Source of the DNA: Candidatus Berkelbacteria bacterium
Lineage (GTDB): Bacteria > Patescibacteriota > UBA1384 > 2-12-FULL-50-11
Reading direction: 5' to 3'
Assembly (NCBI GenBank): GCA_016432625.1
Contig: CP066697.1
Coordinates: 522,561 to 586,560, forward strand
Length of the DNA: 64,000 nucleotides
The position numbers and the translations under genes were made by a program. The notes under the pieces are model-generated. The model was not told the origin of the DNA. It did no database searches and saw only the letters and a program-made list of their open reading frames with translations. Below, one piece after another: positions 331-64,000 of the stretch (the first letter of the stretch is position 1; each line of letters begins with the position of its first letter).

Positions 331-346
331 AAAGGGACCCGTTCAA

Positions 347-386
347 GGGGGCGGCACGCACACTGCGTGACCGCCCCTTTTTCTTT
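347..386 (+). terminator. Rho-independent terminator
   Basis: GC-rich near-perfect hairpin GGGGGCGGCACGCA-CAC-TGCGTGACCGCCCC at 347-377, followed by TTTTTCTTT. Confidence 0.7.
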
Positions 387-412
387 CCCCCCGTTTTTGC
401 CACAATCTGCTC

Positions 413-1264
413 ATGCCGGAACTACCAGAAGTCGAAACAGTTAAACGCAGTCTAGACAAGGCGATTAAAGGCCAAACTATCAAAGATATCGAAGTTCGTG
501 ACTACAAGATTTTTCGCGGCAAACGTCACGATGTAATCGGTGCGAAAATCAACGAGATCGAGCGGCGGGCTAAGACGCTTATTTGGCGCCTTTCTAACGG
601 TAAATTCCTACTTTTTCATCTAAAAATGACGGGCCAGATGCTTTACGATTCTGATGATCACAAACAAATTGCCGGCGGGGGCCACCCAGATGCAGAATAT
701 TTACAGAAACCGCCGCATAAACACACCTATATTATCTTCACGCTCGATAAGGGTCACCTCTACTTTAACGACCTGCGGAAATTCGGCTGGATCAAGGTAT
801 TAGACGACGACACCTTAAAACAAGAGGTCGCAAAATATGGCCCGGAAGTTGATTGGCCCGAATTTAGCTTTCAATTTTTCACAGAAAAATTGAAGTTGAG
901 GCCGAGAATGAAGATAAAAACCATGCTCATGGACCAGTCGTTTATTTCCGGCATCGGCAATATCTATTCTGACGAGATACTTTTTAAAGCGAAAATCCTC
1001 CCGACCCGACCGGTAAAAGACCTGTCCGAGCCAGAGTTACGAGCTATTTACGATCATATTAAACCAGTGCTCGAGTTAGCGATTGAGCACGGCGGCACCA
1101 CGCTAAAAGATTACCGAAAGCTCGACGGGTCTATCGGCGACTTTTTGCAGCACGCTAACGTCTACCACCGGCACGGGCAGCCTTGCAAAGTTTGTAGCAC
1201 AAAAATCGAACGCATAGTTGTCAACGGCCGTTCCGCGCATTTCTGCCCAAATTGCCAGAAATAG
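413..1264 (+). CDS. mutM: Formamidopyrimidine-DNA glycosylase (Fpg/MutM)
   Basis: N-terminus MPELPEVETV carries the catalytic Pro2/Glu3 signature of the Fpg/Nei family. The C-terminus has a zinc finger, CKVCSTKIERIVVNGRSAHFCPNCQK. Length 283 aa. Confidence 0.9.
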   Translation: MPELPEVETVKRSLDKAIKGQTIKDIEVRDYKIFRGKRHDVIGAKINEIERRAKTLIWRLSNGKFLLFHLKMTGQMLYDSDDHKQIAGGGHPDAEYLQKPPHKHTYIIFTLDKGHLYFNDLRKFGWIKVLDDDTLKQEVAKYGPEVDWPEFSFQFFTEKLKLRPRMKIKTMLMDQSFISGIGNIYSDEILFKAKILPTRPVKDLSEPELRAIYDHIKPVLELAIEHGGTTLKDYRKLDGSIGDFLQHANVYHRHGQPCKVCSTKIERIVVNGRSAHFCPNCQK

Positions 1265-1400
1265 TTACGGCCAGGTTTTCTTGTTTTCCCAAAGGGCTTT
1301 TTCGCCCATTCTGCGACGTTCAACTTGGACTAATTCCTGAAAAATACCGTCAATCAAATCATACTTCTTCGCCTCTTCGATCGTTACCCAGGCGAACTCG

Positions 1401-1820
1401 TCAGACTCTTCTTTTTTGTAACTCGATTTCTCCGGAAACGTAAGTAGCCACGCAGCTTAGGACGATTGACGGCGAACCGTCCTCATGAACGCGCGCTAAA
1501 CTAGTCAGGTACTCTACTTCACTGATTTCGATACCAACCTCCTCTTTGACCTCGCGGGCTAACGTGCGCTCCAAGACGTTGTACCAATAAGCCTCCGTAT
1601 CTCTGGGTAGTGCGAGGTAATCTTTAGCTTCGAGCCGTCCACCGGGCACCGTCCACATTCCTGGAAAACGTTTCTTATTTTTTGAGCGTCGGAGGATCAG
1701 ATATCTATCATCACGAATAATAATGGCTGTTATGGCGACTTCGTGCAGAAATTTATTCTCCATGAGGCCATTAAACTCGGGTGTACAATGAATGCAAAGA
1801 AATGGAATTGAATTCAACAA
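1401..1820 (-). CDS. NUDIX hydrolase
   Basis: Nudix box GGRLEAKDY...LERTLAREVKEEVGI matches GGx5Ex7REuxEExGu. The true start may be an internal Met (MENKF...). Confidence 0.7.
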   Translation of the reverse strand: MLNSIPFLCIHCTPEFNGLMENKFLHEVAITAIIIRDDRYLILRRSKNKKRFPGMWTVPGGRLEAKDYLALPRDTEAYWYNVLERTLAREVKEEVGIEISEVEYLTSLARVHEDGSPSIVLSCVATYVSGEIELQKRRV

Positions 1821-1933
1821 TAATCATCGGCGCGCTGGTACTGCTCTTAGTAGTGGCGATCCTAAAGAAGCTACTGAAATTCGCTTTGTTTTTAGTGATT
1901 GTCGGCGCGATCTACTGGTTTTTCTTTAGGTAG
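1802..1933 (+). CDS. Possible small hydrophobic peptide (43 aa, two TM-like segments)
   Basis: ATG at 1802 through TAG at 1931-1933 encodes MELNSTIIIGALVLLLVVAILKKLLKFALFLVIVGAIYWFFFR. It is below the ORF-track size cutoff and has only a weak RBS. Confidence 0.2.
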   Translation: MELNSTIIIGALVLLLVVAILKKLLKFALFLVIVGAIYWFFFR

Positions 1934-2285
1934 TTGAACGGCTCCGACCTAAAGAGGTGGGAGCCGATCGGTCGGGCCGCTATTGATGGCGGCGGTTGCG
2001 TCGTCTGCCCAGTTTCTTGGGCTTTCCCCCGTTGCGCTCGTCTCGCTTCTGCTTCTTAGCGCGAATGCTTGCTTGACAACTTCGTGACACTATCTTTTCA
2101 TTCCTCCGTCAGTGTCCCAAAAGGGCCCCATAAGCATACACATCAACTCAACAATTCGGAACTTGTTCGCTCGTTGACTACGGAGTGCCAAAAAATTACA
2201 ATACAAATCTCTGCCAAAGAGGTGGCTGGGCTTGGCCTAGTCGGGAGGAAACAATGCACTTCTCAGTTCAACACAGGGGGGATGA

Positions 2286-2678
2286 ATGAACGTCAGAGTT
2301 TTGAGCGGCGTCGTCAAAGACGACTTGGGTCTTGGGCGATTTCCGGTGACGTTTCTCTGCGTCAGCGACATCGATTCGTCGATGAGCGTCGAAGAATGCC
2401 GTCATGCATTCGAGGTCACGAAAGCTTTCTGTAGCCTCTACGGTGACCAGACTATCTTCATCCAGGCTACGACCGATCAGCCGATCGACAACGCGCCACG
2501 CCAGCACTGCCTAGCAATCGCAAACGCCTTGGCCGATCGGGCGGAAGGACAGCGAACAATCGGCCTCTATAGAAGCCCCACCGAAAACAACCCCGCCGAT
2601 TTTGAGCTCGTCAAGCCTGGAACGGCTTTCGCGGGACGACACACCATCCCCTTTTCGTCATTCTCCTTCGTCTACTAG
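2286..2678 (+). CDS. Hypothetical protein (uncertain)
   Basis: A 130-aa ORF with non-repetitive composition and a G-rich stretch upstream of the ATG. It overlaps Arg-rich alternative-frame ORFs in a GC-rich segment, so the coding status is uncertain. Confidence 0.3.
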   Translation: MNVRVLSGVVKDDLGLGRFPVTFLCVSDIDSSMSVEECRHAFEVTKAFCSLYGDQTIFIQATTDQPIDNAPRQHCLAIANALADRAEGQRTIGLYRSPTENNPADFELVKPGTAFAGRHTIPFSSFSFVY

Positions 2679-2690
2679 GCGAGGGAGACC

Positions 2691-2720
2691 AGTGGCGCGA
2701 CCTTCCGAGGTCGCGCCACT
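2691..2720. terminator. 12-bp perfect hairpin, possible bidirectional terminator between the convergent 2286..2678 ORF and purL
   Basis: AGTGGCGCGACC-ttccga-GGTCGCGCCACT. Confidence 0.4.
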
Positions 2721-2807
2721 CTGCTATATTAGCGAGCAATATGCAAGAAAGATTGAGCAACGCACGTAAACAGAACGCCCTGGTCCAGAGAGGACCAGGG
2801 CGCATAT

Positions 2808-5800
2808 TCAGTTGTTGTCGCACCAGTTACGGGCGTTTTGGAATAACTCAAGCCAAGGGCCTTCCCTAGACACGAGGTCGGAAGGCAACCAGGGCCAATT
2901 CCACCATTCCAACGTCCGCTCAGGGTGCGGCATGATCGCCAAGTGGCGACCATTTGGTGAGCATAGCGCGGCGATACCGGCAGGGCTTCCATTCGGGTTG
3001 AATGGGTAACTTTCCACCGAACCATCCGCGATGCCCCCTTGAGGGTAGGAGAACCTGACGGGTGCCAGATTCTCATCGAGGATTCGCTGGAGCGTTTCCT
3101 CTTGAGGAACGTGTAATCGTCCCTCTCCATGGGCAACCCAGATTCCTAGCCTGGAACCCTCCATGTCTTTCAACATAATGGCCGGACTGGGCAGGATCTT
3201 CACCGTCGAGAACCGACTCTCGAACTGCCTACTCGCACCCGCCGAAGCGTTGTGGATGAACCTCGGCTGTGCGTCTTCGGTGAGACCGAAGCTTGGACCA
3301 GGGACCCAGCCCAAAAGTGCCATCAACTGGCAGCCGTTACATACTCCTAGCGAGAAAGTGTCTGGCTGCTCATAGAACCTCTGAAACTCCTCGGCAAGCC
3401 GGGAGTTAAAGCGAATCACTCCAGCCCATCCCTTTCCGGCGTCAAGAACGTCGCCGAAGGAGAATCCCCCGACGAACGCCACACCCCGGAAATCTCGAAG
3501 CGAAATGCGACCTGCAAGCAGATCGTTCATCGTCACGTCGAAGGGGGTGAAACCGCCTTTGAAGAAGGCCGCGGCCATTTCACGATCGCTGTTACTTCCC
3601 TGCTCGCGTAGAATAGCCACTCGCGGTTCGGTGCCAGTCCTTGCCTTAATCCGGAATTGCTTCCAAGGATCAAAGGTTAGGTGGTAAGCCGGTATAGCCA
3701 CTTGAGTGGCCAGAACCCTATGCTCAGCTTCCGCGTGAGCCGGGTCAGCTTGTAGCTTCTCCAGCTCAGTGCTCGTTCGTTCCCACTGCCCCCTAAGGGT
3801 CAGCATCTCGCTAGTTAGCACCGTGTCGTTGTTGACCTGAATCTGAACAGAAAGGTCAGACGTCGCCTTGCCAATTTCTCGGAAAGGCACGTCCTCAGTC
3901 CACAACCGCCTCCTTACGCTCACTACTTTTTCCTTGGAGCAGCCGAGGATGAGGCCTGGCTCCTCACTAAAGAGTAGCGACAGGGGGTCTGCGTCACTCC
4001 GCAGCGAAATGTCCAGGCCGGTACAACCGGCGAAGGCCATCTCGAGCAAAGTTACGATCAGTCCGCCATCACTCCGGTCGTGTACCGAGTTCACCGCTCC
4101 TTTTCGAACGAGTGTCTGAACCACGGTGAACGTCTTCTTGAGTAACTCCAGGTCATCTACGTCCGGCGATTCGTCACCCACCTGACCATAGACTTGAGCG
4201 AGGGCCGAACCGCCGAGGCGATTCTTTCCTTTACCAAGGTCAATGTAGATGAGCTCTGAACCTTCAGGAACCGCGGCGTTTACTTTGCGCGTGACGTCAG
4301 ACGTCGGCGCGTAGTTTGCTACTACGAGTTCGCCTGGCGCCTTAACCACGTGCTCGGAGCCATCCTGGGCTTTCATCTTGGCGGCCATAGACAGACTGTC
4401 CTTGCCGCCATCGATAGCCATTCCGCATTCGACAAGGATGTCGCGAAGGGCTTGCGCTGCTTCGAGAAGCCACGCGCCTTCACCTATGAGCTTGGGAGCC
4501 CACATCCAGTTCGCCGAACAGCGAATGTCCTGCATTTTCGTGATCGGCACGCCGACCATGTTTAGCAAGGCTTCCGCTACCGTTAGGCGCGCCATGGCCG
4601 CCGGAGAGATTAGCCCTTTCATGGGCTGTTCCCCGAGGCTCAGAACGACACCGCTGGTTTCGAAATGACTTTGCGCCATCACGGCGCAGTCGGCGAGCGT
4701 GACATGCATTGGCCCGATGCATTGCTGCTGAGCCACTAAACCCGTCACGCACCGATCTACTTTAGTCGTGAGGAACCGCTTCGAGGCCACTGCTGGGAGC
4801 AGTAGCACTCGCACCAGCGCCTCTTCCACAGTCAGGTTGTCCGGGAGCCGAAGTGGCTCACGAACGGCTTTGACTCGTGTGAGGTTGAAGGTTTTCTGGG
4901 GGAGCTTCTCCAGGACGAGGTCCAAAGGCAGAGCTACCGGCGTGGTGCCGTCGCTCTCATCGTGCAGGATCAACAAACCGTCGCCGGTCACTTGCCCCAC
5001 AATCGCCATAGGAACGCCTTCGCGTTCACAGATTACTTGGAGGGCCGTCAGACCATCTTCTGTAGCCAGTAACGCTTCACGCTCTTGGCTCTCGTTCGCC
5101 CAGATCTCTGCCACCGAAAGGCTTGTGTCGCCTATTGGAAGGTGCCGCAGCTCAATCCGTGCACCCGCCGGAACTACCAGCTCCGGGAGAGCATTGCAGT
5201 CACCGCCAGCACCTAGGTCGTGAATTGACACGATCGGATTCTTTTCGCCAAGCTCGCTACAGGTCTGTACGACCCGCCACATTCGCTGCTCCATTTCGGG
5301 GTTACCGCGCTGAACAGCGTTAAAATCGAGCTCCGCACGATTCTCGCCTTGGATCATGGAGCTTGCTGCTCCACCACCAAGACCGATCCGATACGCCGGG
5401 CCACCGAGCTGCACAAGGAACATTCCCTTTTGGGGGATTCCCTTTTCGACGTGACGCTCGTCAATCTGACCAGCACCAACGGTGTACATCACCGGCTTTG
5501 TCCAGCTCCGCCACTCTCCGCCAACTTCCAACCCCGCCGTTCGTGTAAACCCGTAGATCACGGGTTCGCCGAAACAGTTTCCGTAGTCGGATGCACCGTC
5601 GCTTGCCCGAATGAGGATGTCGAGCGGTGAAGCCCACTCATCCGGATGCGCCCAGCTCCCCATTTCCCACGGCTGTTCAAAGCCAGGGATTTGGAGATTG
5701 CCTACGCAGTATGCAGCACCAGCTACGCCCATTATTCCGGCCCTGCCAACGGATAGGTTGTCACGAATGCGACCACCTGTTCCGGTAGCTGCCCCGGGGT

Positions 5801-6749
5801 ACGGAGCTTTGCCAGACGGCATATTGTGCGTTTCAGCGGTAAGCGTTGGATGCAGGTTGCGGTGAGTGGTGTCGAAAGCCACCGGCTCCCCCGGACGAGT
5901 GGACACAAGGGTCCATACTCCCGAGGAAACCTTGATAGCCGAACTGTCATCGTGAAAGGCGATGAGCGAATTGCCCGGAGAGCGTATCCATGGAGTTCTA
6001 ACGATCTCCATCAGACTCTCTGGCTGCTCCACATCATCTACCACTAACCGACCCTTGAAGAACCAGTGACGGCAGTGCTCAGAGTTCGCTTGCGCGATCT
6101 GCATAAGCTCCACGTTTGTTGGATCGCGCTCTAGCACCTCTACGAAAAGGTTCAAACAGAGCGCCAAATCTTGGTCGTCGTCCATCCCAAGCCCAAGCTG
6201 CTTGTTCTCGTACCGCAGTACATCTATTCCACCCTGTAGAAGGGGGATGACGCGCATTGGTTCAGGAAGCATATCGTGCTCCAGGCTGTCGAGCGGCACC
6301 TCATAGCGCTGCTCCGTCATGCGATCGTGGAGGGATCCAGCGAGAGTCTCCCATTGCTGAGAGGTTAGCCGATATCCGGTGGCTATGAGCGGTTGATAGC
6401 GGCGCGAGCGTTCAAGCCGCACCACCTGATTCAATCCGCACTTGTGACAAATCTCCACGGCCGACGACGAAAAAGGCGTTTCGAAGTTCAGCCGAGGCCC
6501 AACTTCGATAATCCCATCACGCTCATCGAGAAACGTTTTCTGCCCAAACTGATCGGGCTCGAACGTCTCACCGAGAAGCCAGACAAGGCGTGCCTCTTGT
6601 TGAGGCGAGAGCGGCGCGCTCAGCTTGACGTAATAGCAGTACTCCGTGTGAATGCTGTTGATGTTGAGTCCAAGCTGTCTGCGCGCACGGTCGACGAGGG
6701 TTTCAGTTCCTTGCGCTGTCAGCGCAGGAGTTCGGTAGAATCTTTTCAT
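2808..6749 (-). CDS. purL: Phosphoribosylformylglycinamidine synthase, single-chain large type (FGAM synthase)
   Basis: About 1313 aa. The N-terminus MKRFYRTPALT aligns with the large-PurL N-terminus. There is a central PurM-like FGAM synthetase region. The C-terminal class-I glutamine amidotransferase has catalytic Cys in GVCNGCQLM and HGEGR near the end. The start was taken at ATG 6749 rather than the upstream GTG at 6812. Confidence 0.9.
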   Translation of the reverse strand: MKRFYRTPALTAQGTETLVDRARRQLGLNINSIHTEYCYYVKLSAPLSPQQEARLVWLLGETFEPDQFGQKTFLDERDGIIEVGPRLNFETPFSSSAVEICHKCGLNQVVRLERSRRYQPLIATGYRLTSQQWETLAGSLHDRMTEQRYEVPLDSLEHDMLPEPMRVIPLLQGGIDVLRYENKQLGLGMDDDQDLALCLNLFVEVLERDPTNVELMQIAQANSEHCRHWFFKGRLVVDDVEQPESLMEIVRTPWIRSPGNSLIAFHDDSSAIKVSSGVWTLVSTRPGEPVAFDTTHRNLHPTLTAETHNMPSGKAPYPGAATGTGGRIRDNLSVGRAGIMGVAGAAYCVGNLQIPGFEQPWEMGSWAHPDEWASPLDILIRASDGASDYGNCFGEPVIYGFTRTAGLEVGGEWRSWTKPVMYTVGAGQIDERHVEKGIPQKGMFLVQLGGPAYRIGLGGGAASSMIQGENRAELDFNAVQRGNPEMEQRMWRVVQTCSELGEKNPIVSIHDLGAGGDCNALPELVVPAGARIELRHLPIGDTSLSVAEIWANESQEREALLATEDGLTALQVICEREGVPMAIVGQVTGDGLLILHDESDGTTPVALPLDLVLEKLPQKTFNLTRVKAVREPLRLPDNLTVEEALVRVLLLPAVASKRFLTTKVDRCVTGLVAQQQCIGPMHVTLADCAVMAQSHFETSGVVLSLGEQPMKGLISPAAMARLTVAEALLNMVGVPITKMQDIRCSANWMWAPKLIGEGAWLLEAAQALRDILVECGMAIDGGKDSLSMAAKMKAQDGSEHVVKAPGELVVANYAPTSDVTRKVNAAVPEGSELIYIDLGKGKNRLGGSALAQVYGQVGDESPDVDDLELLKKTFTVVQTLVRKGAVNSVHDRSDGGLIVTLLEMAFAGCTGLDISLRSDADPLSLLFSEEPGLILGCSKEKVVSVRRRLWTEDVPFREIGKATSDLSVQIQVNNDTVLTSEMLTLRGQWERTSTELEKLQADPAHAEAEHRVLATQVAIPAYHLTFDPWKQFRIKARTGTEPRVAILREQGSNSDREMAAAFFKGGFTPFDVTMNDLLAGRISLRDFRGVAFVGGFSFGDVLDAGKGWAGVIRFNSRLAEEFQRFYEQPDTFSLGVCNGCQLMALLGWVPGPSFGLTEDAQPRFIHNASAGASRQFESRFSTVKILPSPAIMLKDMEGSRLGIWVAHGEGRLHVPQEETLQRILDENLAPVRFSYPQGGIADGSVESYPFNPNGSPAGIAALCSPNGRHLAIMPHPERTLEWWNWPWLPSDLVSREGPWLELFQNARNWCDNN

Positions 6750-6868
6750 TTTTCCGTACTTCCGTTCTGTTAAGGATACAGAGGCACATAGCAAAGCAGT
6801 GCCTTGCGGCACCCCTCTATCCCATGGACTCCGCGGCTATTCTATCAGTTACCCGTGAATAATAAAGT

Positions 6869-6882
6869 GTGGACCGTTGGGG
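6869..6882. repeat. 14-nt direct repeat of the tRNA-Ala 3-prime end (TGGACCGTTGGGGA), second copy at 7001-7014
   Basis: Exact 14-mer duplicated 132 nt apart. The upstream copy is followed by an 8-bp hairpin CGAGTCCG-tacg-CGGACTCG, not by a tRNA body. Confidence 0.6.
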
Positions 6883-6959
6883 ACCGCGAGTCCGTACGCG
6901 GACTCGTCTTCTCACTAACGTTCAAAGTCGGACCCTGGGTTCGAGTCCGAGTAATCGAA

Positions 6960-7000
6960 CATCGAAAAAGCCGAGGCAAAATGCCTCGACCTTTTCGATG
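6960..7000 (-). terminator. Long hairpin immediately 3-prime of tRNA-Ala, putative terminator or processing stem
   Basis: A 19-bp stem with 2 mismatches and a 3-nt loop, CATCGAAAAAGCCGAGGCA-aaa-TGCCTCGACCTTTTCGATG, directly abuts the tRNA 3-prime end. Confidence 0.45.
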
Positions 7001-7073
7001 TGGACCGTTGGGGATTCGAACCCCATGCCTCCGCCATGCAAAGGCGGCGCTCTACCAAGTGAGCTAACGGCCC
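7001..7073 (-). tRNA. tRNA-Ala (anticodon UGC)
   Basis: Reverse complement is GGGCCGTTAGCTCACTTGGTAGAGCGCCGCCTTTGCATGGCGGAGGCATGGGGTTCGAATCCCCAACGGTCCA. The anticodon loop is TTTGCAT, the G3:U70 Ala identity pair is present, D- and T-arms are canonical, and CCA is not encoded. Confidence 0.85.
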
Positions 7074-7118
7074 GATTGAGCTTGCTCAGTAGCGCTGAGA
7101 CTACCGAGCAAGCCGTGT

Positions 7119-7361
7119 TCATTCGACAAAAACCGGGAGCGGTTCTTGCTTGATGACTGAGATGAGCTCGACGCCGAGGTGACCAGTTTGGTACTTGTTG
7201 GCGAGTGCCATGATCTTGCGCTCGATTGCATCGCGATCCTTGTCGAGTAACGACTGGCTCTCGCCAGCGTTGATCCGACGGACGAGCATGGCGTCTTCTC
7301 GAAACAGCTCTTCAGCGTATGCGGCATCAGTCTGTCTGTCTTCATCCGAAATCGTAACCAA
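7119..7361 (-). CDS. Small hypothetical protein (80 aa)
   Basis: Non-repetitive ORF. It overlaps a Ser-rich alternative-frame ORF that was rejected. Confidence 0.35.
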   Translation of the reverse strand: MVTISDEDRQTDAAYAEELFREDAMLVRRINAGESQSLLDKDRDAIERKIMALANKYQTGHLGVELISVIKQEPLPVFVE

Positions 7362-7450
7362 GGCTTGCCTCCAAGGTGCGGTACTCGACCCCCAATTGGT
7401 GGGAGTCGGCTGAGGCCAATATTACTCTTTTCGGCTTAAGATGTCAGCAG

Positions 7451-7651
7451 TTAGAAGACGTAAATTACGGTTATGATTATTAGCACCACGCCGAGTAGCT
7501 TCCACATCGTATAGGTGCCACCTTCGCCCAAGTATTTTTCAGCAAGGTAGCTATGGCCAACGAGTTGAGTCAGCTGATAATTGTACTTCACTAATACCGT
7601 TCCTAAGACGAAGCCGCCAATCAGAATCAAGATCTTCAGAAGAATAGCCAT
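7451..7651 (-). CDS. Small membrane protein (66 aa, two TM)
   Basis: Hydrophobic ORF directly downstream of 7653..8168 with a 1-nt gap. Confidence 0.4.
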   Translation of the reverse strand: MAILLKILILIGGFVLGTVLVKYNYQLTQLVGHSYLAEKYLGEGGTYTMWKLLGVVLIIITVIYVF

Positions 7652-7652
7652 C

Positions 7653-8168
7653 TCAAGTCAATAATACATAAAGTCCGACGATAATAACTAGGAGCTGCGA
7701 AGCGAAGCCCCACCAAGTCGGAACCTGACGTCGCGCTTCCTCGCTAATGTGATTACGTTCATGAAACCCGCGCTCAATCAAAACACCCGGAACATATTTT
7801 GTAACCTTATTTACAAGCGGGATATTGTCTATTAAGTCTGGGAAGAACCCGCCGAGCGCGCCCCAAAAAACGGGACTCGTCCAGATCGGGAGCTCTCCTC
7901 TCGTTTGAACGACAAGGAAAACTATTACTGCTGCGGCGGTAACATCAACAATGCCTGAGGCAATTCCTATTGGCGGGACGTCTTTTAGCTCAACGCCGCT
8001 CGGGTAGCCGTGGATGTCTTTACCAAAGATATTTTCCCAATGCGGTATTTTATCGAGGACATAATGAGAAGCCCAGCCAGCAGCGAACGCAATTGCGGGC
8101 GCAGCTGGCAATTCGACGACAAATGACCCGAGCGCTGCGCCAACTACCGCGTGTGGAATTGTAAGCAT
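7653..8168 (-). CDS. Membrane protein, possibly a membrane-bound metal-dependent hydrolase (YdjM/DUF457-like)
   Basis: 171 aa with multiple TM segments and His/Asp-containing motifs (HYVLDKIPHWEN). The family assignment is a guess. Confidence 0.4.
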   Translation of the reverse strand: MLTIPHAVVGAALGSFVVELPAAPAIAFAAGWASHYVLDKIPHWENIFGKDIHGYPSGVELKDVPPIGIASGIVDVTAAAVIVFLVVQTRGELPIWTSPVFWGALGGFFPDLIDNIPLVNKVTKYVPGVLIERGFHERNHISEEARRQVPTWWGFASQLLVIIVGLYVLLT

Positions 8169-8229
8169 GTTTCCATTCTACAACGATCCCCTGGCGTATT
8201 CGCCAGGGGATGTCGGGTTTGGAGAGGGC

Positions 8230-8652
8230 CTAGAGCAGGCAGTCCAGTACGTCCTTCTCGATCTGGACGCGGGTGCCCGGGTCAGTCCATGTATACAGCT
8301 TCTTCGCGTCCGCGATGTGCATTCGGATGCAGCCGTTTGAGGCTGGGTATGCCGGAACGCTGTGGTAGCCGTGTATCAGGATGTGACCGACGAGCCGTTG
8401 TGGGTAGTAGAGCGTTCCACCGCCGTACTTGGGCAAGGCTTTGCCCCGGGTTCGCTTGTCGTGGATAAAGAAGGTGCCTGTTGGCGTCTTCTTCCCAGGA
8501 CGAGCAGTCGAGACCGAGAACTGCATCACTGCTTCGAGTCCTTCGAAACAGGTCATAGTCTGGTCTTTCAGGTCGACGACGATGAATTTGTCCTGCGCAT
8601 CAGTAGCCGAGAGGCCGCCAATAGCAAGAACAGCGAGTAAAGTTGCAAACAC
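8230..8652 (-). CDS. L,D-transpeptidase (YkuD domain), secreted
   Basis: N-terminal signal peptide, then the catalytic motif HGYHSVPAYPASNGCIRM (His...Ser-x-Gly-Cys-Ile-Arg). A GC hairpin at 8186-8211 lies downstream. Confidence 0.7.
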   Translation of the reverse strand: MFATLLAVLAIGGLSATDAQDKFIVVDLKDQTMTCFEGLEAVMQFSVSTARPGKKTPTGTFFIHDKRTRGKALPKYGGGTLYYPQRLVGHILIHGYHSVPAYPASNGCIRMHIADAKKLYTWTDPGTRVQIEKDVLDCLL

Positions 8653-8734
8653 TTTTTTCGATCCTCCGTGAACGCCTTGTGAGACGTGGAAACTACACTA
8701 ACAGATTATGAGGAAAAATCCAGGGCTTTAAGAG

Positions 8735-9673
8735 TTATTCTTTACTAGAAACTACCTCCGGCTCAACGTCCAGTTCAATCTGAAACTTATCACGCACCAC
8801 CTGTTTAACGTGATCAATCAGTCCTAAGATATCTTTTGACGTTGCCCCACCAAGGTTGACGATATAGTTAGCATGCTTCTCGGAGACTTGCGCCTGGCCG
8901 ATCTTAAAACCCTTCAGTTCTGCGTCATCGATAATTTTGCCGGTGGGAATAATTGGAAAAGGGTCGTTTTTGATAAAATCATGAAAATGCGCCATCCAGT
9001 TTTCGGGGACTCGCCCGATTGGCGTGTTTTTAAAAATGGAACCGACATTTGGAAACTCCAACGGATGCCGGTCTTGCCGAAACGCGATCCACTTGTCAGC
9101 TGTAGCGCGCAGTTCAGCCTGATCGCCCTGCCTCAGTTCAACGGCAGCGGAAACGATTACCTCTGAGTGACGTTTATAGATACTGTCGCGGTAGCCAAAC
9201 ATCGCCCCGTCATTTTTGCGCTCGATTTCTCGTCCCGTGGTAGTCTCAATACTTCTAACGCTCGCGATAACGTCTTTCATCTCCCCGCGAAATGCCCCGG
9301 CATTGCCACGGATGGCGCCGCCGAAAGTACCGGGCAAACCGCCCGCCCATTCTAGGCCAGCTAAGCCATTGCTTATCGACGCGTCAACCAATTCGTTCAT
9401 CATATTTGCGGCGCCGGCTCTTAGCGACTGACCTTCGATTTTGAGTTCTTTTATGCCGATTAAAATTACTAACCCCGGCCAACCCTCGTCTGGAAAAATA
9501 ACGTTACTGCCGTGGGCAAGAATAAACAGGGGCCAGTGTTCTTTAGCGACAAGTTGCAGCGCTTCTCGCAAATCAGCTTCAGTTTCGACTTTAACGAAAT
9601 GCTTGGCTTGGCCGCCAACCTTGAAAGTACAGTAGTTCTTTAGGAGGACATCTTCTTCGAGTCTTAGCGCCAT
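8735..9673 (-). CDS. murB: UDP-N-acetylenolpyruvoylglucosamine reductase
   Basis: 312 aa with an FAD-binding N-terminal region (FKVGGQAKHF...) and a MurB C-terminal domain. Its presence beside an L,D-transpeptidase fits a peptidoglycan-containing organism. Confidence 0.8.
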   Translation of the reverse strand: MALRLEEDVLLKNYCTFKVGGQAKHFVKVETEADLREALQLVAKEHWPLFILAHGSNVIFPDEGWPGLVILIGIKELKIEGQSLRAGAANMMNELVDASISNGLAGLEWAGGLPGTFGGAIRGNAGAFRGEMKDVIASVRSIETTTGREIERKNDGAMFGYRDSIYKRHSEVIVSAAVELRQGDQAELRATADKWIAFRQDRHPLEFPNVGSIFKNTPIGRVPENWMAHFHDFIKNDPFPIIPTGKIIDDAELKGFKIGQAQVSEKHANYIVNLGGATSKDILGLIDHVKQVVRDKFQIELDVEPEVVSSKE

Positions 9674-9682
9674 AACTCAACC

Positions 9683-10273
9683 TTAGGCGTGGATGACGAA
9701 GAATACAAAAAGGACGCGGTAGAACAGCGCCAAGGCTAGCGTCCCCAGGACCCAACGAAAACGCAGGTGCGAGATGCCTCCTGCGTAGGCCATTAACTCC
9801 GTGTTAATGATTGGGATCATGGTGATTATGAAGAAATGTTGCCAACGCAGGTTGTCGCTTAGCTCTTCTATGAAATTGAAATTCCTCGGTGAGAACCAGC
9901 GTTTCAATAACGGTCGGCCAAAGTTTCGTGCGACGTAAAAGTTGATGCTTGAGCCAGCTAAGCCCCCGGCGAGTCGTACGACGATAACGCTCACGGGATC
10001 CATTATGTTTAGTAAAACAACGTCAACGGGCAGGGTCGGTATCGGCACGAAAACCGAAGCAACCATCGTATAGGCGAAATACGACAATAAAGCCGTGCTC
10101 TCGTGTTTTAGTAACTGTTGGACAACTGGGTGCTCGGCGGGGTTAACATATTTCTGAATTAACGCCGAAACAACAGCAATAAAAATGCCAAATAAAAAAA
10201 TAAAGCCGACGATTTGCATAACATGTTTCGGGGGGAGTTTGAGGGAGTTTTTCTTGACTATCTGATGAATCAT
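9683..10273 (-). CDS. DedA/TVP38-family membrane protein
   Basis: 196 aa with multiple TM segments and a VTP/DedA-like core. Confidence 0.45.
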   Translation of the reverse strand: MIHQIVKKNSLKLPPKHVMQIVGFIFLFGIFIAVVSALIQKYVNPAEHPVVQQLLKHESTALLSYFAYTMVASVFVPIPTLPVDVVLLNIMDPVSVIVVRLAGGLAGSSINFYVARNFGRPLLKRWFSPRNFNFIEELSDNLRWQHFFIITMIPIINTELMAYAGGISHLRFRWVLGTLALALFYRVLFVFFVIHA

Positions 10274-10358
10274 TCGTGAGCCTTAGTATGCCTGATTCGC
10301 TTCGGCTGTTAAACGGTTTCACGAACCTGCGGAGAGAGCAGTAAGCTACAATACTTTT

Positions 10359-11756
10359 ATGCGTCTATGGAGCCGACAAATTGTCAGTAGGAATTTTAGT
10401 AACCAAGCGCGTTGGGTCAGTTTGGCGCTTATCTCAACGCTCTTTATCGCCTCCGTTTATTCGGCGGAGGTTTTACACACGCAAAGAAATTTACGAGCCG
10501 AAACTGACACCATTGCCCAAAATAATGAAAAGTTGCGAAATTTGGCCATCACTTCCTACAAGAATGTCGCCGTAAAAATAACCGAGGCCGAGAGTCTTGG
10601 TGCCGACGTTTCAGCGCAGAAAACCGAGCTTGCAACGAACTACGCCCTTATCCTCACTGAGCATGAATATCTCCAGGCAGCTACTGAACTTACAACGCAG
10701 CTTGCTTCGGTCATGGCTCTAATCACGAGCCAGACCGCAGCGATTGAAGCCGAGAAACAAAAAGGTACGCTGTCGGGCGTAGTTAAAGAAGGTGACAATC
10801 CGTTGTCGGGTGTAAAAGTGGCCCTGAAAGAAGGCAGCAGCGAGCTCGGTTCCGTGCTCACTGGAACAGATGGTCGCTACTTATTGACCGTTAAGGCTGG
10901 CAGCTGGACGCTTGTCGGCAGCAAAAGTGGTTACACCTCGCACACTAAGTCCGGCGTTACAATTAGTGCCGGGCAAACAGCCACCTACGACTTTTCGCTT
11001 TCTAAGGCACCCGCCGCCCCTCCTCCGACTAGTGCCCCACCGCCGAGCTCAGTACTAACCAACGGCGACAGTTCGTACGAAGTCGTGACCGTTAAAGGCT
11101 ACACGGTACATTTATCGAAATTTAATCTCGCGAGCGGCGAGTTCCGCGTTATTACCGATACGGCCAACGACAACGACTGCGTCGACAACTGTCCGACCAA
11201 GTCGCTTTCCAGTTACGTCAGTGACCACGGCGCCTTTGCCGGCATGAACGGTACCTACTTCTGTCCCGCAGACTATTCATCCTGCGCTGGCAAGACCGGC
11301 TCCTTCTACTGGAAAGTTTGGAACAGCCGCCTTAGTAAAATGATCAACGGCAGCAATGGCTCCTTTGAATATGAGCCGTTCCTGACAGTGAACGGCAATA
11401 CGGCCAAATATTATGGTTCCTGGTCTAGCTTTAGCGGCACTATTACCGCCGGTATCAGTTCGTCCCCAGCGTTGGTTTCTGGTGGCAGTAACGTGCTCAA
11501 CCAAAGTAACCTCGATAGCAAACAAAAAACGGTCAAGTCTAACCGCGGCGCGATGGGCCTGAAAGGACAGGTGCTCTACTTGGCGATTGCCAAGAGCGCG
11601 ACCGTCATAGATCTAGCCGATATTATGGACGAGCTCGATGTTGATTACGCGATGAACGTCGACGGCGGCGGGTCGAGCGCGATGATTTATAACAATAGCT
11701 ACAAAGTTGGCCCCGGCCGAAGCCTACCTAACGCACTCGTTGTTGCCCGACGATAG
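10359..11756 (+). CDS. Secreted/anchored protein with a CarboxypepD_reg-like beta-sandwich and a C-terminal phosphodiester glycosidase (NAGPA-like) domain
   Basis: N-terminal TM, a coiled-coil region, then GVVKEGDNPLSGVKVALKEG...GTDGRYLLTV (a carboxypeptidase-regulatory-like fold). The C-terminal motif DVDYAMNVDGGGSSAM is typical of the phosphodiester glycosidase family. Confidence 0.55.
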   Translation: MRLWSRQIVSRNFSNQARWVSLALISTLFIASVYSAEVLHTQRNLRAETDTIAQNNEKLRNLAITSYKNVAVKITEAESLGADVSAQKTELATNYALILTEHEYLQAATELTTQLASVMALITSQTAAIEAEKQKGTLSGVVKEGDNPLSGVKVALKEGSSELGSVLTGTDGRYLLTVKAGSWTLVGSKSGYTSHTKSGVTISAGQTATYDFSLSKAPAAPPPTSAPPPSSVLTNGDSSYEVVTVKGYTVHLSKFNLASGEFRVITDTANDNDCVDNCPTKSLSSYVSDHGAFAGMNGTYFCPADYSSCAGKTGSFYWKVWNSRLSKMINGSNGSFEYEPFLTVNGNTAKYYGSWSSFSGTITAGISSSPALVSGGSNVLNQSNLDSKQKTVKSNRGAMGLKGQVLYLAIAKSATVIDLADIMDELDVDYAMNVDGGGSSAMIYNNSYKVGPGRSLPNALVVARR

Positions 11757-11763
11757 AACTACT

Positions 11764-12054
11764 TCAACTGGGGACGGCAATAAAGTATCCGAAAAAGATT
11801 AAGATTGCTCCCATAGCAACGAGTACGAGCCACCTCCATGAATACGTCTTAAAGAAGTACCAGCTAAAGCCGAGATACGTTATGAAAGATAGCCCCAAAC
11901 TAACCAGTGAAATTACGTCTCTCCATTTGGAGTGAGTAAGGTCGGCAAAATAGTTAATGCCGCTCGACCCGATATAAAGTTCGGGTAAAAAAGTATTCAA
12001 AAATAAAAGCCAAACAGCCACAGCGGCAACTAATGCTTTGGCTCTAATAGTCAT
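11764..12054 (-). CDS. Small membrane protein (96 aa)
   Basis: Three predicted TM helices, directly downstream of the tRNA locus. Confidence 0.4.
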   Translation of the reverse strand: MTIRAKALVAAVAVWLLFLNTFLPELYIGSSGINYFADLTHSKWRDVISLVSLGLSFITYLGFSWYFFKTYSWRWLVLVAMGAILIFFGYFIAVPS

Positions 12055-12056
12055 TG

Positions 12057-12268
12057 TGCGAGTACCTGGATTTGAACCAGGGACCTCGTCATTATCCGCC
12101 GCGGCTCTGCCGCAGAGGAATTTAAAATCTTTGTGGGCGTATCTGGATTTGAACCAGAGACCTCGTCATTATCAGTGACGCGCTCTAACCAACTGAGCTA
12201 TACGCCCAGGTTCCCACACAAGATTTTAAATATCAGTGACGCGCTCTAACCAACTGAGCTATACTCGC
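12057..12268 (-). tRNA. Interrupted tRNA-Ile(GAU) gene. The 5-prime half (12232-12268) and 3-prime half (12057-12096) are separated by an approximately 135-nt insert in the anticodon loop.
   Basis: The 5-prime half reads GCGAGTATAGCTCAGTTGGTTAGAGCGCGTCACTGAT and the 3-prime half reads GATAATGACGAGGTCCCTGGTTCAAATCCAGGTACTCGCA. Joined at the shared GAT, they give a canonical 74-nt tRNA-Ile with acceptor stem GCGAGTA/TACTCGC. The insert sits at or near the canonical 37/38 position. Confidence 0.5.
12135..12208 (-). tRNA. tRNA-Ile (anticodon GAU), complete, nested inside the insert of the split tRNA-Ile
   Basis: Reverse complement is GGGCGTATAGCTCAGTTGGTTAGAGCGCGTCACTGATAATGACGAGGTCTCTGGTTCAAATCCAGATACGCCCA. 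It has a canonical cloverleaf with anticodon loop CTGATAA. It is flanked by a 15-nt inverted repeat ATTTAAAATCTT(T)GTG at 12120-12135 and 12217-12231. Confidence 0.8.
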
Positions 12269-12344
12269 ATGAATCAAATTGTAATGTATGCGTGACGCGC
12301 TTAACTCCATCAAGTTTAAATCAGTTAACAGATAAAATCCACCC

Positions 12345-12384
12345 CTAAATGTAAAGCTCTACCGAAGTAGAGCTTTACATTTAG
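12345..12384 (-). other. 18-bp perfect hairpin capped by a UUCG tetraloop in the 16S-tRNA spacer
   Basis: CTAAATGTAAAGCTCTAC-cgaa-GTAGAGCTTTACATTTAG. On the rRNA strand the loop is UUCG. It is likely a processing or structural stem. Confidence 0.6.
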
Positions 12385-12482
12385 CCATTCAACGCGCGTT
12401 GAACACTTGGCGGCTGCAAGAAACAATCTTTCTCGTCTGAAGTAACACTTCAGCCTCGACCTAGAAGAAAATTCCTCTAGAA

Positions 12483-13935
<1,453 letters not shown>

Positions 13936-14333
13936 AACTTCGGTGGAGTTCTTATGAGAGTCCACTTCTTGCTCTTTCCTGGCGGAAAGTGCATGTAGTC
14001 TAACTCTCAACTCTAACCGAAGCGCTCAGAAACTCCTTTGTGTGCTGCTTGATTTGCTGTCGTGTCTTACGACGCGTCGTCAGTTGACGACTGCGACAAC
14101 AGGCTGGCACGCTAAGGGTTCTTAAATGCGGGCACCATTTCGTTTGACCGAAATGGGTACATATATTAACTCATATGTAAGAAGTTTGTAGTGTGTTTCT
14201 TGCAACCGCCAAATACTCATGCCTTAAGGCATCAATTTCGCTAACAAGTCAGCGAAACATCACCTGACGGTTGTGGTCAGTTGTTAAATTTCTAGTTGTG
14301 ACCTCGATGTCTCGAGAAACAGAACTTACGGCA

Positions 14334-14362
14334 ATTTTATGATTAAGCCGCAGCAAAGTCAA
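14334..14362 (-). promoter_or_regulatory. Putative sigma70-type rRNA promoter (TTGACT-17-TAAAAT) about 400 nt upstream of the 16S 5-prime end
   Basis: The minus strand reads cccTTGACTttgctgcggcttaatcaTAAAATtgcc. It lies just downstream of the stop of the 840-aa gene. Confidence 0.45.
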
Positions 14363-20314: not shown

Positions 20315-23300
20315 ATGCGGCGCTTAGACGGAGTTTATTCCTTGGGGGTGGTACTAAGTAGCAAACCGGTGCGCCGAGTTGGTTTGTTGTTGACGTTGCT
20401 CGCTGTTGTCATCGGCATCACTGGCAGTGGTTTCCTACCGACCCTTACCCAAAGCCAAACTGGCTCTGCCTCAGGTGCCCGTCTTTGGTCAAGCGGCGCG
20501 GAGCTTAACTCGCTGACCGCAGATATGGAGATCACCAGTTCCTCTGGTACTACACCAACGATCGACTCAACCACGAAACGCTCTGGCGGCTACGCCTACC
20601 GAGCCAACACCTCGAGTAACACGGCGACGATCTATAAGACCTGGGCCAACTCGGCACAACAAAATAAATTTTGGTTCCGAGCTTATATACGTATTGCCAC
20701 CGCACCAGGAACGGAGATCGGAATTTTCCGGGCTGGAACAAGTACTAACAATAAAATTGGTGTCCGGATGAATTCGGATCGGTCGATCGAGCTTTGGAAT
20801 GAAGAAGATAACGCCATAATTGGTTCGGCAAGTTCGGTATTAGCCACCAATACTTGGTACCGCATTGAGCTTTACATCGACACAACTACCCTCAGCAGCG
20901 CTGTCGCCGATATGGAATTACGTTTGGATGGTGTTCAAGTCGCCTCATCAACCGACCGAACTCTAGATGCCGGTGTTGATCGCCTCACTTGGGGAGTGCT
21001 AACTTCAACAACTGCCGACCTCTATTTTGACGACATTGCCGTCAACGACTCAACCGGACGAACTGACAACTGGCCCGGCGAGGGCAAGATTGTTCACATG
21101 CAGCCAGATGCCACCGGCGATAATGAGCAATGGGACAACACTACTGAGGCCGGGTCACCTACTGAGTGTGACGCCGCTGGCGACCCTAACTGGCAGTGTG
21201 TCGATGAAATACCACCCGACAACTCGACCACCTATTCGGCAACAACGACTAACAATGAAATTGACGACTATAATATCGAGTCCTCCACTAGCGCTGGCTT
21301 GACTGCGAACGACTACGTCAGGCTTGTCTCGGTTGGCGTACGGTTCCGGGCTTGCGGCACTACCACAGAGGGTTTCGGTTGCGCAGCAGGTGAATCTAAC
21401 CAAGACCTTGTCGTCAGGCTGAAAGCAGCTGCCAGCGGCACCACAGACGAAGCAACAACCACGGTTCTTGACAGCGATACTACCTGGCGAACCAATGATG
21501 ACGATTCTGCGCAGCTCAACAAGATTACTGATTATGACCTACCTGGTACGAGTACCTCGCCTTGGACGACAACAGATTTAGATAGTAGTCAAATCGGTGT
21601 CAAAACGAACACTAATAACGGAGTTGGTATCAGAGCATCGGCAATTTGGCTCCAAGTCGAATACGTTCCTAATTTTGGTGGGCGACTTTTTTCCAGTGGT
21701 TTTGAGCTTAACTCGACCGTTGCCGACGAGGAATGGACAGCGACAACTAGCAGCCCTGCTATCAATTCCTCGACATTTCGCTCTGGTGCTTACGCTCTTG
21801 AAACCGAGAACGCTGGCGGTGCCGAATGGATTCGCTACAACTTCGCAACGAGCAACACGACCGGCGATTACTTCGTTAGGGCCTATCTACGAATCGCTAC
21901 CGGGTTCGATTCAAGTGATGTCACTGTGTTGTCGATTCTCAACACTACTAACTCACGAAAGGCTTACATCAAGTTGACTGCATCTGAGACTTTGACACTC
22001 CACGATGAAGACGGCGCCATAGGTTCGGCATCTTCGACGCTTTCAACGGGCGTCTGGTACCGGGTTGAGTTGAAACTTGTTTGTGGCACTGCTTGCGATG
22101 ACGGTAACGACGAAGTTGACGGTCGACTTGACGGCGTGTCATTTGCTTCCTCAACCACACGTGACATAACTGCTGGGGGTGCGGCTCGGCTAGGTTTGGG
22201 CCTACACGCCAGTGACGACGCCGAGTCAACAACCAATACCGTTGGTGATTTAATTTGGGACGATGTAGCGTTAAACAAAAATCAAGGCTCATACCAAAAC
22301 ACCTGGCCTGGCGCGGGGAAGATTATCCACCTTAGACCGAATGCAACTGGTGACAACTCTGAAACTTGGGCTTCGGCTGGTTCGGAGACGACTACTTGTG
22401 ACGACGCCGCGGACGCCAACTGGCAGTGTCTTGATGAAATCACACCTGACGAAGCGACGAGTTATGTCGAAGAAACTACAACCGGGGATTACGAGGACTT
22501 TAACCTTGATGCTTCGCCAATCGGTGCCTCGGACACAGTGAACGTCGTTCATGTTGGCGCGCGTTTCCGAACTAGTTCGGCAACCCAGGAAGATTTCAAA
22601 GTCCGGATTAAAGATAATACTAGCGCCGTACCGATCGAATCAGATACGCTCTCGCCTGCTTCAACGACCTGGGTCAGTAACCGCACAGCCGCGCCCTATC
22701 AATACCCGCTAACGGCTTATACCAGGCCCGAGCAAGAAACAGCCTGGACCGATACACAGCTTGATACGGCCCAAATAGGCGTTCGCGACATTGCCGGCTC
22801 AGGCACTGTCCAGGTTTCGACGCTTTGGCTATTAGTTGACTACACCCCTCCAGAAATAACAATCTCCGGCTCCTGCGATCAGTACGATCAAACAACCGAC
22901 TGCACCGATGACGGTTCTAACGAAATCGCCGTCGCCGTAAACGGCACGATTCAAACCGGCAAGGTGGATGCGACTGTCGACGGCGCTTGGGCAATTTCCG
23001 GCGTAACTCAGCCGGTAATAAATGATATTGTCACTGTTTTCATCAACGGCGAGGCAACCGATGATGAAGAGGCCGTAGCAGTTACAAAATACGACGGCAC
23101 TGGCGACATCACCGGCATTCAACTTTTTTGGCGACACCTATCCATTGGCTCCGTCGACAACCAGACGCTCAGTAACACTGATCTTAGTCAGTACGATAAC
23201 TCGGTCTCTGCCGATGAAGATATCTTTTTCGACGTTTCAGCCGGCGATGACCTGACGGTCGATTCGCTCGGATCATATACCGATGAGGAGCTTTATATCG

Positions 23301-63868: not shown

Positions 63869-64000
63869 TCAAGTTGCCCCAAAGTAACTTCGAGTGCTTG
63901 AGTTTTACCGTCGCGTAGAATCGTCAGCGTCACCTTATCGCCTGGGTTATATTTACGAATTAGGCGCGTCAGCGGATTTGATTCAGTGATCTCGTCATTA
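63865..64000 (-). CDS. 3-prime end of a PDZ-domain protein, possibly an HtrA/DegP-like protease (partial, runs off the window)
   Basis: The minus strand reads ...NDEITESNPLTRLIRKYNPGDKVTLTILRDGKTQALEVTLGQLD*, a typical HtrA C-terminal PDZ pattern. Its stop overlaps the prmC stop by 4 nt (convergent). Confidence 0.45.
   Translation of the reverse strand, partial: NDEITESNPLTRLIRKYNPGDKVTLTILRDGKTQALEVTLGQLD

Follow-up and report, generated by a model that had tools for sequence, protein, structure and literature searches.

Group I introns occur in the anticodon loops of bacterial tRNA genes, including the 35/36 introns of Patescibacteria, and the survey of tRNA introns in that phylum describes group I introns only, with tRNA-Ile and nesting unmentioned (PMC13011429). 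In known integrations into tRNA genes, an integrase-bearing element of kilobase scale lies between one partial and one complete gene copy, and the direct repeat is tens of bases long (bioRxiv 10.1101/2022.07.05.498093). Multi-intron tRNAs have been described from the Thermoproteales (PMC4390854). Here we describe a tRNA gene that lies inside another tRNA gene. In a 64,000-nt stretch of a Candidatus Berkelbacteria genome (contig CP066697.1, positions 522,561 to 586,560; the whole stretch is called the window below), a tRNA-Ile gene downstream of the 16S rRNA gene is split in its anticodon loop by a 135-nt insert, which carries a second, complete tRNA-Ile(GAU) gene. Judging from the sequences compared here, the outer halves are probably the relic of a resident tRNA-Ile gene (A type) that was split by a small replacement cassette, with the inner gene as the copy that works. 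The feature is real, and it is a member of a recurrent architecture in bacteria of the candidate phyla radiation (CPR).

The original prediction of a tRNA-Ile gene split in the anticodon loop by an insert of about 135 nt with a complete second tRNA-Ile was borne out by the minus-strand sequence, ARAGORN, and Rfam. Its layout stood, but coordinates shifted by one base, with the inner gene at 12134-12207 instead of 12135-12208. The inverted repeat around the inner tRNA exists, but its perfect length is 12 nt (12120-12131 / 12220-12231, from a repeat search) instead of 15 nt; with a bulge it extends to about 18 nt, at which length it runs into the 3' end of the inner tRNA. The small hairpin also exists, but it is better drawn as a 10-bp hairpin (12119..12095), which is stabler than 99.7% of shuffles. 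Two helices are named below: H1 is formed by the left flank of the cassette paired with the right flank, starting at the break, and H2 follows without a gap, its last pair using A35. The parts of the nest are as follows, read along the minus strand.

12268..12231, minus strand: outer 5' shell, 38 nt, GCGAGTATAGCTCAGTTGGTTAGAGCGCGTCACTGATA, positions 1-37 of the A-type tRNA-Ile
12230..12208, minus strand: left flank of the cassette, 23 nt, TTTAAAATCTTGTGTGGGAACCT
12231..12220, minus strand: left arm of H1, ATTTAAAATCTT, which begins at the break, its first base being A37 of the outer gene
12207..12134, minus strand: complete inner tRNA-Ile(GAU), B type (ARAGORN; Rfam tRNA, 75.9 bits, E 7e-15)
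between the inner tRNA and the outer 3' shell, minus strand: right flank, 38 nt, CAAAGATTTTAAATTCCTCTGCGGCAGAGCCGCGGCGG
12131..12120, minus strand: right arm of H1, AAGATTTTAAAT
12119..12095, minus strand: H2 hairpin, 10 bp, UCC-U-CUGCGGC-AGA-GCCGCGG-C-GGA, which abuts H1 and has A35 of the outer 3' shell as its last base
12095..12057, minus strand: outer 3' shell, ATAATGACGAGGTCCCTGGTTCAAATCCAGGTACTCGCA, A type from A35 to A73, ATAATGACG...TACTCGCA

The outer 5' shell comprises the acceptor strand GCGAGTA, the D arm, the 5' strand of the anticodon stem, and CTGATA, and BLAST aligned it with the A type over query positions 1-38 at 97% identity; the outer 3' shell aligned over positions 35-74 at 100%. 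The two shells overlap by GATA once the G at 12096 is counted, and the boundary can be placed at 33/34 through 37/38. Joined in silico, the outer halves gave a canonical tRNA-Ile in ARAGORN. The inner tRNA has the acceptor stem GGGCGTA/TACGCCC and the T stem TCTGG/CCAGA, with CCA not encoded; the non-tRNA part of the insert is the two flanks, 23 + 38 = 61 nt. According to the repeat search, the outer 5' piece is 95% and the outer 3' piece 89% identical to the inner gene, and a 33-nt exact repeat is common to the outer 5' piece and the inner gene. The same search found a degenerate third copy of GCGCGTCAC..ATA in the 16S-tRNA spacer (12287-12301), which may be what remains of an older 5' shell. 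An ARAGORN run that permitted introns of up to 400 nt, a check that had been proposed, still reported inner genes only.

A chimeric assembly, joining two rrn spacers or two tRNA-Ile alleles, was considered as well. Its natural branch point in a de Bruijn graph would be the 33-nt exact repeat, and L001, an independent Logan assembly from a different run (comparison contigs and loci are cited by such numbers), ends exactly there. However, L001 runs without a gap from the inner 3' part through the 38-nt right flank and the outer 3' piece into the downstream open reading frame (ORF), base for base as in the window, and the nested path is the only graph path that uses all pieces. Whole nests of the same design are contiguous in five assemblies from different groups and assemblers, taken from ENA (L008), JGI (L018), and NCBI (L019, L020, L021), and for three further nests, the partial one of L006 among them, the right half recurs in a Logan contig (L007, L009, L022). 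An assembly chimera is thus excluded for practical purposes, and a second rrn copy, the other way to explain the pattern, is unlikely in a CPR/Patescibacteria genome. The ends of Logan contigs as such were rejected as a sign of nesting, as L005 also stops within an intact tRNA.

The uninterrupted state was found in close relatives. L003 and L004, the sister of the window with a 16S gene 95.4% identical, have the same gene order (MurB, VTT, NAGPA ... 16S ... ClpP) and hold the outer, A-type gene without interruption; the joined outer halves of the window differ from the intact L003 gene at one D-loop base. When one genome per GTDB species was scanned with the outer 5' half, the gene was intact in all six species found, and BLAST showed that the contigs L027 and L028 are uninterrupted over the covered positions, break site included. 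Therefore the interrupted state is derived, which on these alignments places the interruption in the window after the split from L003. L023 and L024 have an intact gene of another type (D), inverted relative to 16S, an orientation also seen in L020. The 16S identities gave two clades, {window, L003} and {L008, L021, L024}, which are about 90% identical to each other.

Related genomes were also checked for the same nested arrangement, and it was found. Further nests were sought through NAGPA homologues on other contigs and by a JGI metagenome scan for the outer 5' half with non-A at position 38, and manual parsing of all loci agreed with the BLAST census. Five other assemblies together yielded six units of the same design, with as many as three layers. 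In L008, an A-type 5' shell encloses a C-type 5' shell, a complete B'-type gene, and a C 3' shell, the A 3' shell being gone. L021 has a C gene in a C shell in another degenerate shell, and L020 has a D gene in a decayed B shell, with the entire nest turned round with respect to 16S. L006, a partial nest, reads as a D gene, then an A 3' shell, then a C 3' relic (D in A in C relic). L018 and L019, from other CPR-like organisms whose tRNAs encode CCA, contain the same nest, while L031 and L029 show a full gene followed by a 3' relic only. Nesting was confined to tRNA-Ile, and tRNA-Ala at the same loci was never fragmented.

Some of these loci have features of their own. The outer shells of L018 (1051-1128) and L019 (1365-1443) bear an insert of about 78 nt with two hairpins between the anticodon stem and the variable loop, and the second hairpin has compensatory changes between the two loci (CATTAATTGCC/GGCAATTAATG vs CGTAAATTGC/AGCAATTTACG). 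L029 (12413-12551; IMG/VR UViG_3300009285_008404) has a full tRNA-Ile, 23 nt, and then a 3' fragment that starts from C32 of the anticodon loop; the pair sits in a Lys-Ile-Ala tRNA cluster, and the contig is classified as viral. Two IMG/VR scans for two tRNA-Ile 5' halves, made for viral or mobile carriers, returned only L029, a CPR-like contig, and the phage tRNA array L030, neither with a cargo-gene cassette.

The breakpoint was the same throughout. In all complete nests the 5' shell stops at A37 and the 3' shell restarts at A35, which leaves ATA as a direct repeat (GATA in the window). The cassettes are 121-156 nt long with no ORF, and in every nest inner and outer gene point the same way. 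A 3-nt duplication of this kind points to an event at the DNA level. With its concentric shells and so short a repeat, the insert is indeed no standard integration scar, as had been supposed. Parts of the cassette frame were shared between different hosts. The window and L008 have 22 of 24 nt in common across the left junction of A shell and cassette, though L003, the sister of the window, is uninterrupted. Around different inner genes and shells, the right end in both L020 and L021 reads TTAAT-TCTGyTGC...GCArCAGA-TAA, one change between the two being compensatory, and the last 45 nt or so of the cassette are common to L006, where they adjoin an A shell, and L031, where they adjoin a C relic. 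The order of shells also conflicts, with C inside A in L008 and A inside C in L006, which calls for independent events. Shared frames in different hosts together with conflicting order therefore require that different tRNA-Ile(GAU) genes were hit several times independently, always at the same three nucleotides, and we infer an enzyme-mediated, site-specific DNA event in trans, either a 3-nt staggered cut or a 3-nt crossover at ATA.

The nests were then compared with known DNA insertions. As in integrase-type integration into tRNA genes, the target is a tRNA loop (here A35-A37), function would be restored by the incoming DNA, fragments are left behind, and events stack. They differ in that both 5' and 3' fragments lie concentrically, the otherwise gene-less insert measures 121-156 nt, the repeat is 3 nt (4 in the window), and a whole tRNA is supplied. 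The attP/attB logic of tyrosine integrases was rejected, since no dyad resembling the anticodon stem-loop arises when the cassette ends are joined, and a repeat of 3 nt is short. Miniature inverted-repeat transposable elements (MITEs) and hairpin-ended derivatives of IS200/IS605 are also small, structured, and gene-less, with a short target duplication and a hairpin near one end, but in the DNA compared the cassette is found at a single locus, and it carries an essential tRNA gene that is also its only target. It has no terminal inverted repeats: of the H1 arms the left is terminal, whereas the right lies internally before H2, and the right ends of the cassettes have no inverted repeat in common with the left ends. 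The intervening sequences of 23S rRNA, which are cut by RNase III and not re-ligated, are likewise short helix-forming inserts in the hairpin loop of an RNA gene of the rrn operon; however, fragmented rRNA works, a tRNA cut in the anticodon loop would not be expected to decode, and here the insert would supply the function. Twintrons show the same concentric layers, each new insertion entering the most recent copy of the target, but their layers are spliced ribozymes, and those of the nests would be DNA relics of tRNA genes. Integron attC-like boxes were dismissed: ATTTAAC/GTTAAAT in L018 and L019 fit RYYYAAC/GTTRRRY, the other nests do not, and the match was treated as a coincidence of AT-rich palindromes. 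CTG/ATAAT (slash at the break) presumably resembles the nick sites of rolling-circle Rep proteins (pC194, phiX174), which is a lead only; no Rep or HUH gene was found among the scanned ORFs.

The following mechanism would account for the nests. A promoterless cassette of 135 nt, made of the left arm of H1, a tRNA-Ile gene, the right arm of H1, and H2, would have split the A-type gene at the DNA level and left the 3-nt direct repeat ATA of positions 35-37 (GATA in the window). The inner gene (12134-12207) would be the working tRNA-Ile(GAU), and the outer pieces would be the previous A-type gene of the lineage. The cassette would be transcribed from the promoter of the host gene, here within the 16S transcript, and the ordinary 5' and 3' tRNA processing enzymes would release the inner tRNA. 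A promoter scan found a promoter-like site upstream of the 16S gene (14362..14334), the sole good match of sigma-70 type on the minus strand upstream of the nest, and no such site inside the cassette; in the inverted nest of L020, the outer 5' shell is closely preceded by TATAAT. It thus appears that the cassette relies on the promoter of the host gene. A nested precursor cut by RNases, one of the earlier suggestions, is a plausible route to release of the inner tRNA, but it would not mend the outer one.

The insertion would destroy the only tRNA-Ile(GAU) gene and at the same time supply a substitute whose acceptor stem is different. The shells are nearly identical, and a hybrid tRNA recombined from them would be mismatched, so the nest would be trapped. 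Recombinants of shell and inner gene, predicted for an exchange through the 33-nt repeat, had 3-5 of the seven acceptor pairs in four of the five heterotypic nests (5/7 in the window), and the recombinant of the homotypic L021 nest had 7/7. Thus heterotypic nests would be trapped, and homotypic ones could collapse to a full gene with a 3' relic behind it, the form that L031 and L029 show. As each cassette would bring a new anticodon-loop target, later insertions would land in the innermost gene, and concentric shells would result, of which the outermost would be the oldest and most decayed.

Taken one step further, the cassette could tentatively be regarded as a new kind of selfish element, which spreads by entering the anticodon loop of the single essential tRNA-Ile(GAU) gene, kills that gene and puts its own copy in its place, regenerates its target, and is unlosable; this we hold to be a possibility, and short of an even chance. 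If it were so, serial invasion would explain the shells and the fast turnover of tRNA-Ile types (A, B, C, D) among close CPR genomes, and it would imply an undiscovered enzyme that recognises the DNA of the tRNA-Ile anticodon stem-loop with a 3-nt stagger or exchange.

Several observations weigh against a relic split by a replacement cassette. The left junction of the window comes from one assembly, the independent contig covering the right half; a second assembly of this junction was not on record when sought through the 840-aa upstream protein, and L032 ends before the locus. The pairing of H1 and H2 is kept while their sequence changes, which suggests selection on the structure of RNA or single-stranded DNA, and a dead relic needs none. 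The outer shell of the window is pristine and on its own indistinguishable from a functional pair of exons, though a pristine shell also fits a recent event. Conservation of the cassette ends is weak, the left being TTAA-rich and the right variable, and they have no terminal inverted repeats. A search of the 64-kb window and loci L001-L031 for the flanks, H2, and the T-loop inserts turned up no further copies, which lends no support to a dispersed MITE-like repeat, and Pfam and PHROGs gave no recombinase, transposase, HUH enzyme, ligase, or endonuclease among the 38 scanned ORFs of the window or the ORFs beside nests. The sample is small, about ten lineages, mostly from one clade.

Poor conservation of the ends, no dispersed copies, and no enzyme gene in the scanned ORFs are also what would be seen if the capture were unprogrammed, that is, if hairpin-prone DNA of the anticodon loop of the single tRNA-Ile gene broke occasionally and foreign DNA was ligated in. 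As insertions would survive only if they chanced to bring a working tRNA-Ile, the nests would then be a survivorship artefact, and transcript-level selection would have shaped H1 and H2 later. Ready uptake of foreign DNA is commonly ascribed to CPR bacteria. The spacer is also a hot spot for unrelated small ORFs: such ORFs lie between 16S and tRNA-Ile in L008 (12555-13600), L020 (12369-12614), L021 (12420-12659), and L031 (4513-5495), none with a Pfam family above the curated cut-off or a PHROG match, and the gene content of the spacer varies among close relatives, which marks the 16S-tRNA-Ile spacer as a site of frequent gene insertion. However, unprogrammed capture would be expected to give ragged ends, yet every cassette runs from H1 at A37 to H2 at A35 with the same 3-nt repeat, and homologous frames occur in different host tRNA types. 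We therefore regard this explanation as unlikely.

Returning to the replacement cassette, we asked which copy looks functional. Inner genes scored as normal tRNAs in all nests. Of the outer shells, that of L019 has 4 of 7 acceptor pairs and was rejected by ARAGORN after joining in silico, that of L020 has lost the D arm and anticodon stem, the A 3' half of L008 is gone, and the shells of L006, L008, L020, and L021 contain T-loop inserts. The most degenerate layers were the outermost. At position 17 of the D loop, where genomes differ (T or C), the shell agrees with its inner gene in five of five nests, which suggests gene conversion between layers.

The T-loop inserts are 24-41 nt long and lie in the outer 3' shells of L008 (12083-12124), L020 (12282-12325), L021 (12084-12125), and L006 (11514-11570). 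Those of L008, L020, and L021 are related (yTTGCGnAGCA...GGGAGAT) despite the different tRNA types. The motif TTGCGAAGCAACG also occurs in relics that resemble acceptor minihelices (GGGCGATTGCGAAGCAACGCCC) upstream of the intact tRNA-Ile of L023 and L024.

These shells bear on the idea of a true nested intron, in which the insert would be removed from the RNA by a protein- or RNase-based pathway and both the inner and a spliced outer tRNA would be made. The perfect tRNA-Ile that the window halves form on joining agrees with it, as do five of six complete shells with 7/7 acceptor pairs and a break at the canonical 37/38 region; the inserts in T loop and variable region are reminiscent of the multi-intron tRNAs of Thermoproteales (PMC4390854), and Patescibacteria are rich in tRNA introns (PMC13011429). 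Bulge-helix-bulge (BHB) introns of archaea and eukaryotes likewise break tRNAs at the 37/38 region, with extra inserts in the T loop or variable region and related inserts in different tRNAs, but here the host is bacterial, the insert holds a tRNA, the shells decay, and a 3-nt duplication, which has no role in splicing, stands at every boundary. The fold check for a BHB motif (two 3-nt bulges, 4-bp helix) at the junctions was negative in the minimum free energy (MFE) and centroid folds of six units, which showed a three-way junction instead. A BHB intron would also need an intact host tRNA in relatives, and the shells of L019, L020, and L008 cannot yield one. No EndA-family splicing endonuclease or RNA ligase was matched among the 38 scanned ORFs, and the literature search found neither a bacterial tRNA splicing endonuclease nor a paper linking one with Patescibacteria. 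Cleavage by RNase P and RNase Z leaves ends that cannot be ligated, which speaks against an RNase-based route. Protein splicing, as the original prediction had proposed it, thus found no support, and a nested intron of any kind seems very improbable. If a spliced outer tRNA were made after all, it would be the first protein-dependent tRNA splicing in Bacteria.

A group I intron had been discounted at the outset, and this was upheld. Group I introns have a conserved P3-P9 core and are typically at least 200 nt long; the upstream exon ends in U and the intron in G. At gathering score and at E<=1, Rfam found tRNA only in the insert, with no group I core and no other ribozyme or RNA family; 'Plastid-ycf2' matches were set aside as the antisense strand of tRNA sequence. 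The Patescibacteria introns share phylum and loop with the nests (PMC13011429), but the present insert has only 61 nt beyond the tRNA and no ribozyme core. The U/G splice rule can be phased in the window (..CACU/GAUA...GCGGCG/GAUAAUG), but it fails in L018, L019, L008C, L006, and L031, where T or A precedes the 3' shell. A hammerhead-like reading of CUGAUA with three helices was rejected, since junction strands of 5/0/3 do not fit the core. Split or permuted tRNA genes were rejected too, the halves being collinear, 135 nt apart, in normal order, and with no BHB.

The predicted folds were constant in topology. In the MFE and centroid folds of the six units, the junction atop the outer anticodon stem is three-way, with 5 nt, H1, 0 nt, H2, and 3 nt in succession. 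A 216-nt stretch that spans the 212-nt unit of the window folds as a tRNA within a tRNA at -85 kcal/mol (z = -5.4, 0 of 200 shuffles as stable). H2 of the window has -16.4 kcal/mol against a shuffle mean of -7.5, with 0.003 of shuffles at least as stable, and H2 was stabler than 99.4-100% of shuffles in 6/6 units. H1 in the window is a 12-bp helix that rises from the anticodon loop, and it is longer in relatives; the duplex was significant in four of the six units, while the AU-rich perfect 12-mer of the window was no stabler than shuffles.

Constant geometry, the significance of H2 and H1 in 6/6 and 4/6 units, and compensatory changes in H2 would suit an exapted processing scaffold, in which the outer halves, H1, and H2 form a structured precursor that helps the inner tRNA to fold and to be excised from the 16S co-transcript. 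A module of the same topology in the spacer of L003 (fold z = -6.2) would suit it as well. Flank scrambling, however, did not consistently lower the predicted inner cloverleaf: the native flanks were better in L018 and L020, made no difference in three units, and did worse in the window, where they are predicted to compete with the acceptor stem of the inner tRNA. No scaffold is needed by relatives that have a single intact gene, and shells lose stems or halves without apparent harm (L020, L008). Such a scaffold is, in our estimate, quite unlikely.

The L003 region (13260-13890, minus strand; also in L004) contains two tandem modules of this sort in the spacer, each with an outer helix of 15-16 bp (TTAAAGCAGGGATGGA / TCCATCCCTGCTTTAA) around a cargo and a hairpin (GCTCGAAC..GTTCGAGC). 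An ordinary 16-bp helix here takes the place of the tRNA shell, the topology being otherwise that of the nest frame. The first cargo is an 82-nt tRNA-like sequence (Rfam 59.8 bits) with a 16-nt anticodon loop and its own helix extending the acceptor, which ARAGORN calls Pro-AGG; the second is about 290 nt long and has no Rfam match.

If the nests are relics split by replacement cassettes, an essential single-copy tRNA gene in reduced genomes would be replaced repeatedly by small incoming cassettes. This would be a mode of gene replacement with addiction-like logic, of which no description was found for tRNAs; the literature search found no published precedent. Standard tRNA finders report the inner gene only, so the shells go unnoticed, and the 33-nt repeat breaks short-read assemblies at the rrn locus. 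The nests raise questions about the enzyme that acts on the DNA of the tRNA-Ile anticodon stem-loop, a possible part of H1 and H2 in RNA processing, and a possible horizontal spread of acceptor-stem changes of tRNA-Ile among CPR bacteria.

The surroundings of the nest in the window are as follows.

13936..12481, minus strand: 16S rRNA gene (Rfam RF00177, 1482.8 bits)
12480..12269, minus strand: spacer between 16S and tRNA, 212 nt
11764..12054, minus strand: hydrophobic ORF of 96 aa, with its ATG 2 nt past the 3' end of the outer tRNA

The 96-aa ORF had no family match in Pfam or PHROGs, and its membership in the nest could not be demonstrated; at its position L003 has a different gene, an SLT transglycosylase. 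The spacer contains a perfect 18-bp hairpin (12345-12384), CTAAATGTAAAGCTCTAC-TTCG-GTAGAGCTTTACATTTAG, the core of which, AAAGCTCTAC-TTCG-GTAGAGCTTT, is conserved in L003 (13209-13238). The rRNA operon of the window is interrupted by protein genes, with about 5 kb between tRNA-Ile and tRNA-Ala (7001-7073). Between the two tRNA genes lie the 96-aa ORF and genes for an NAGPA-domain protein, VTT, MurB, and YkuD, and PurL, NUDIX, and Fpg follow tRNA-Ala. No 23S gene lies within the window (the region discussed is 1-13936), and in L008 (1-15390) 23S lies about 5 kb past tRNA-Ala.

Two observations come from further along the window. A 27-nt match at 63974-64000 (minus strand), TAATGACGAGATCACTGAATCAAATCC, is 85% identical to the 3' half of tRNA-Ile; it lies inside what appears to be the C-terminal part of a protein-coding gene and is probably due to chance. 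Two giant ORFs at 20315-30157 (3280 aa) and 37611-45656 (2681 aa) have as neighbours ORFs without Pfam matches together with Big_1, beta-lactamase-family, and cohesin-domain proteins, and this region is probably a cell-surface gene cluster.

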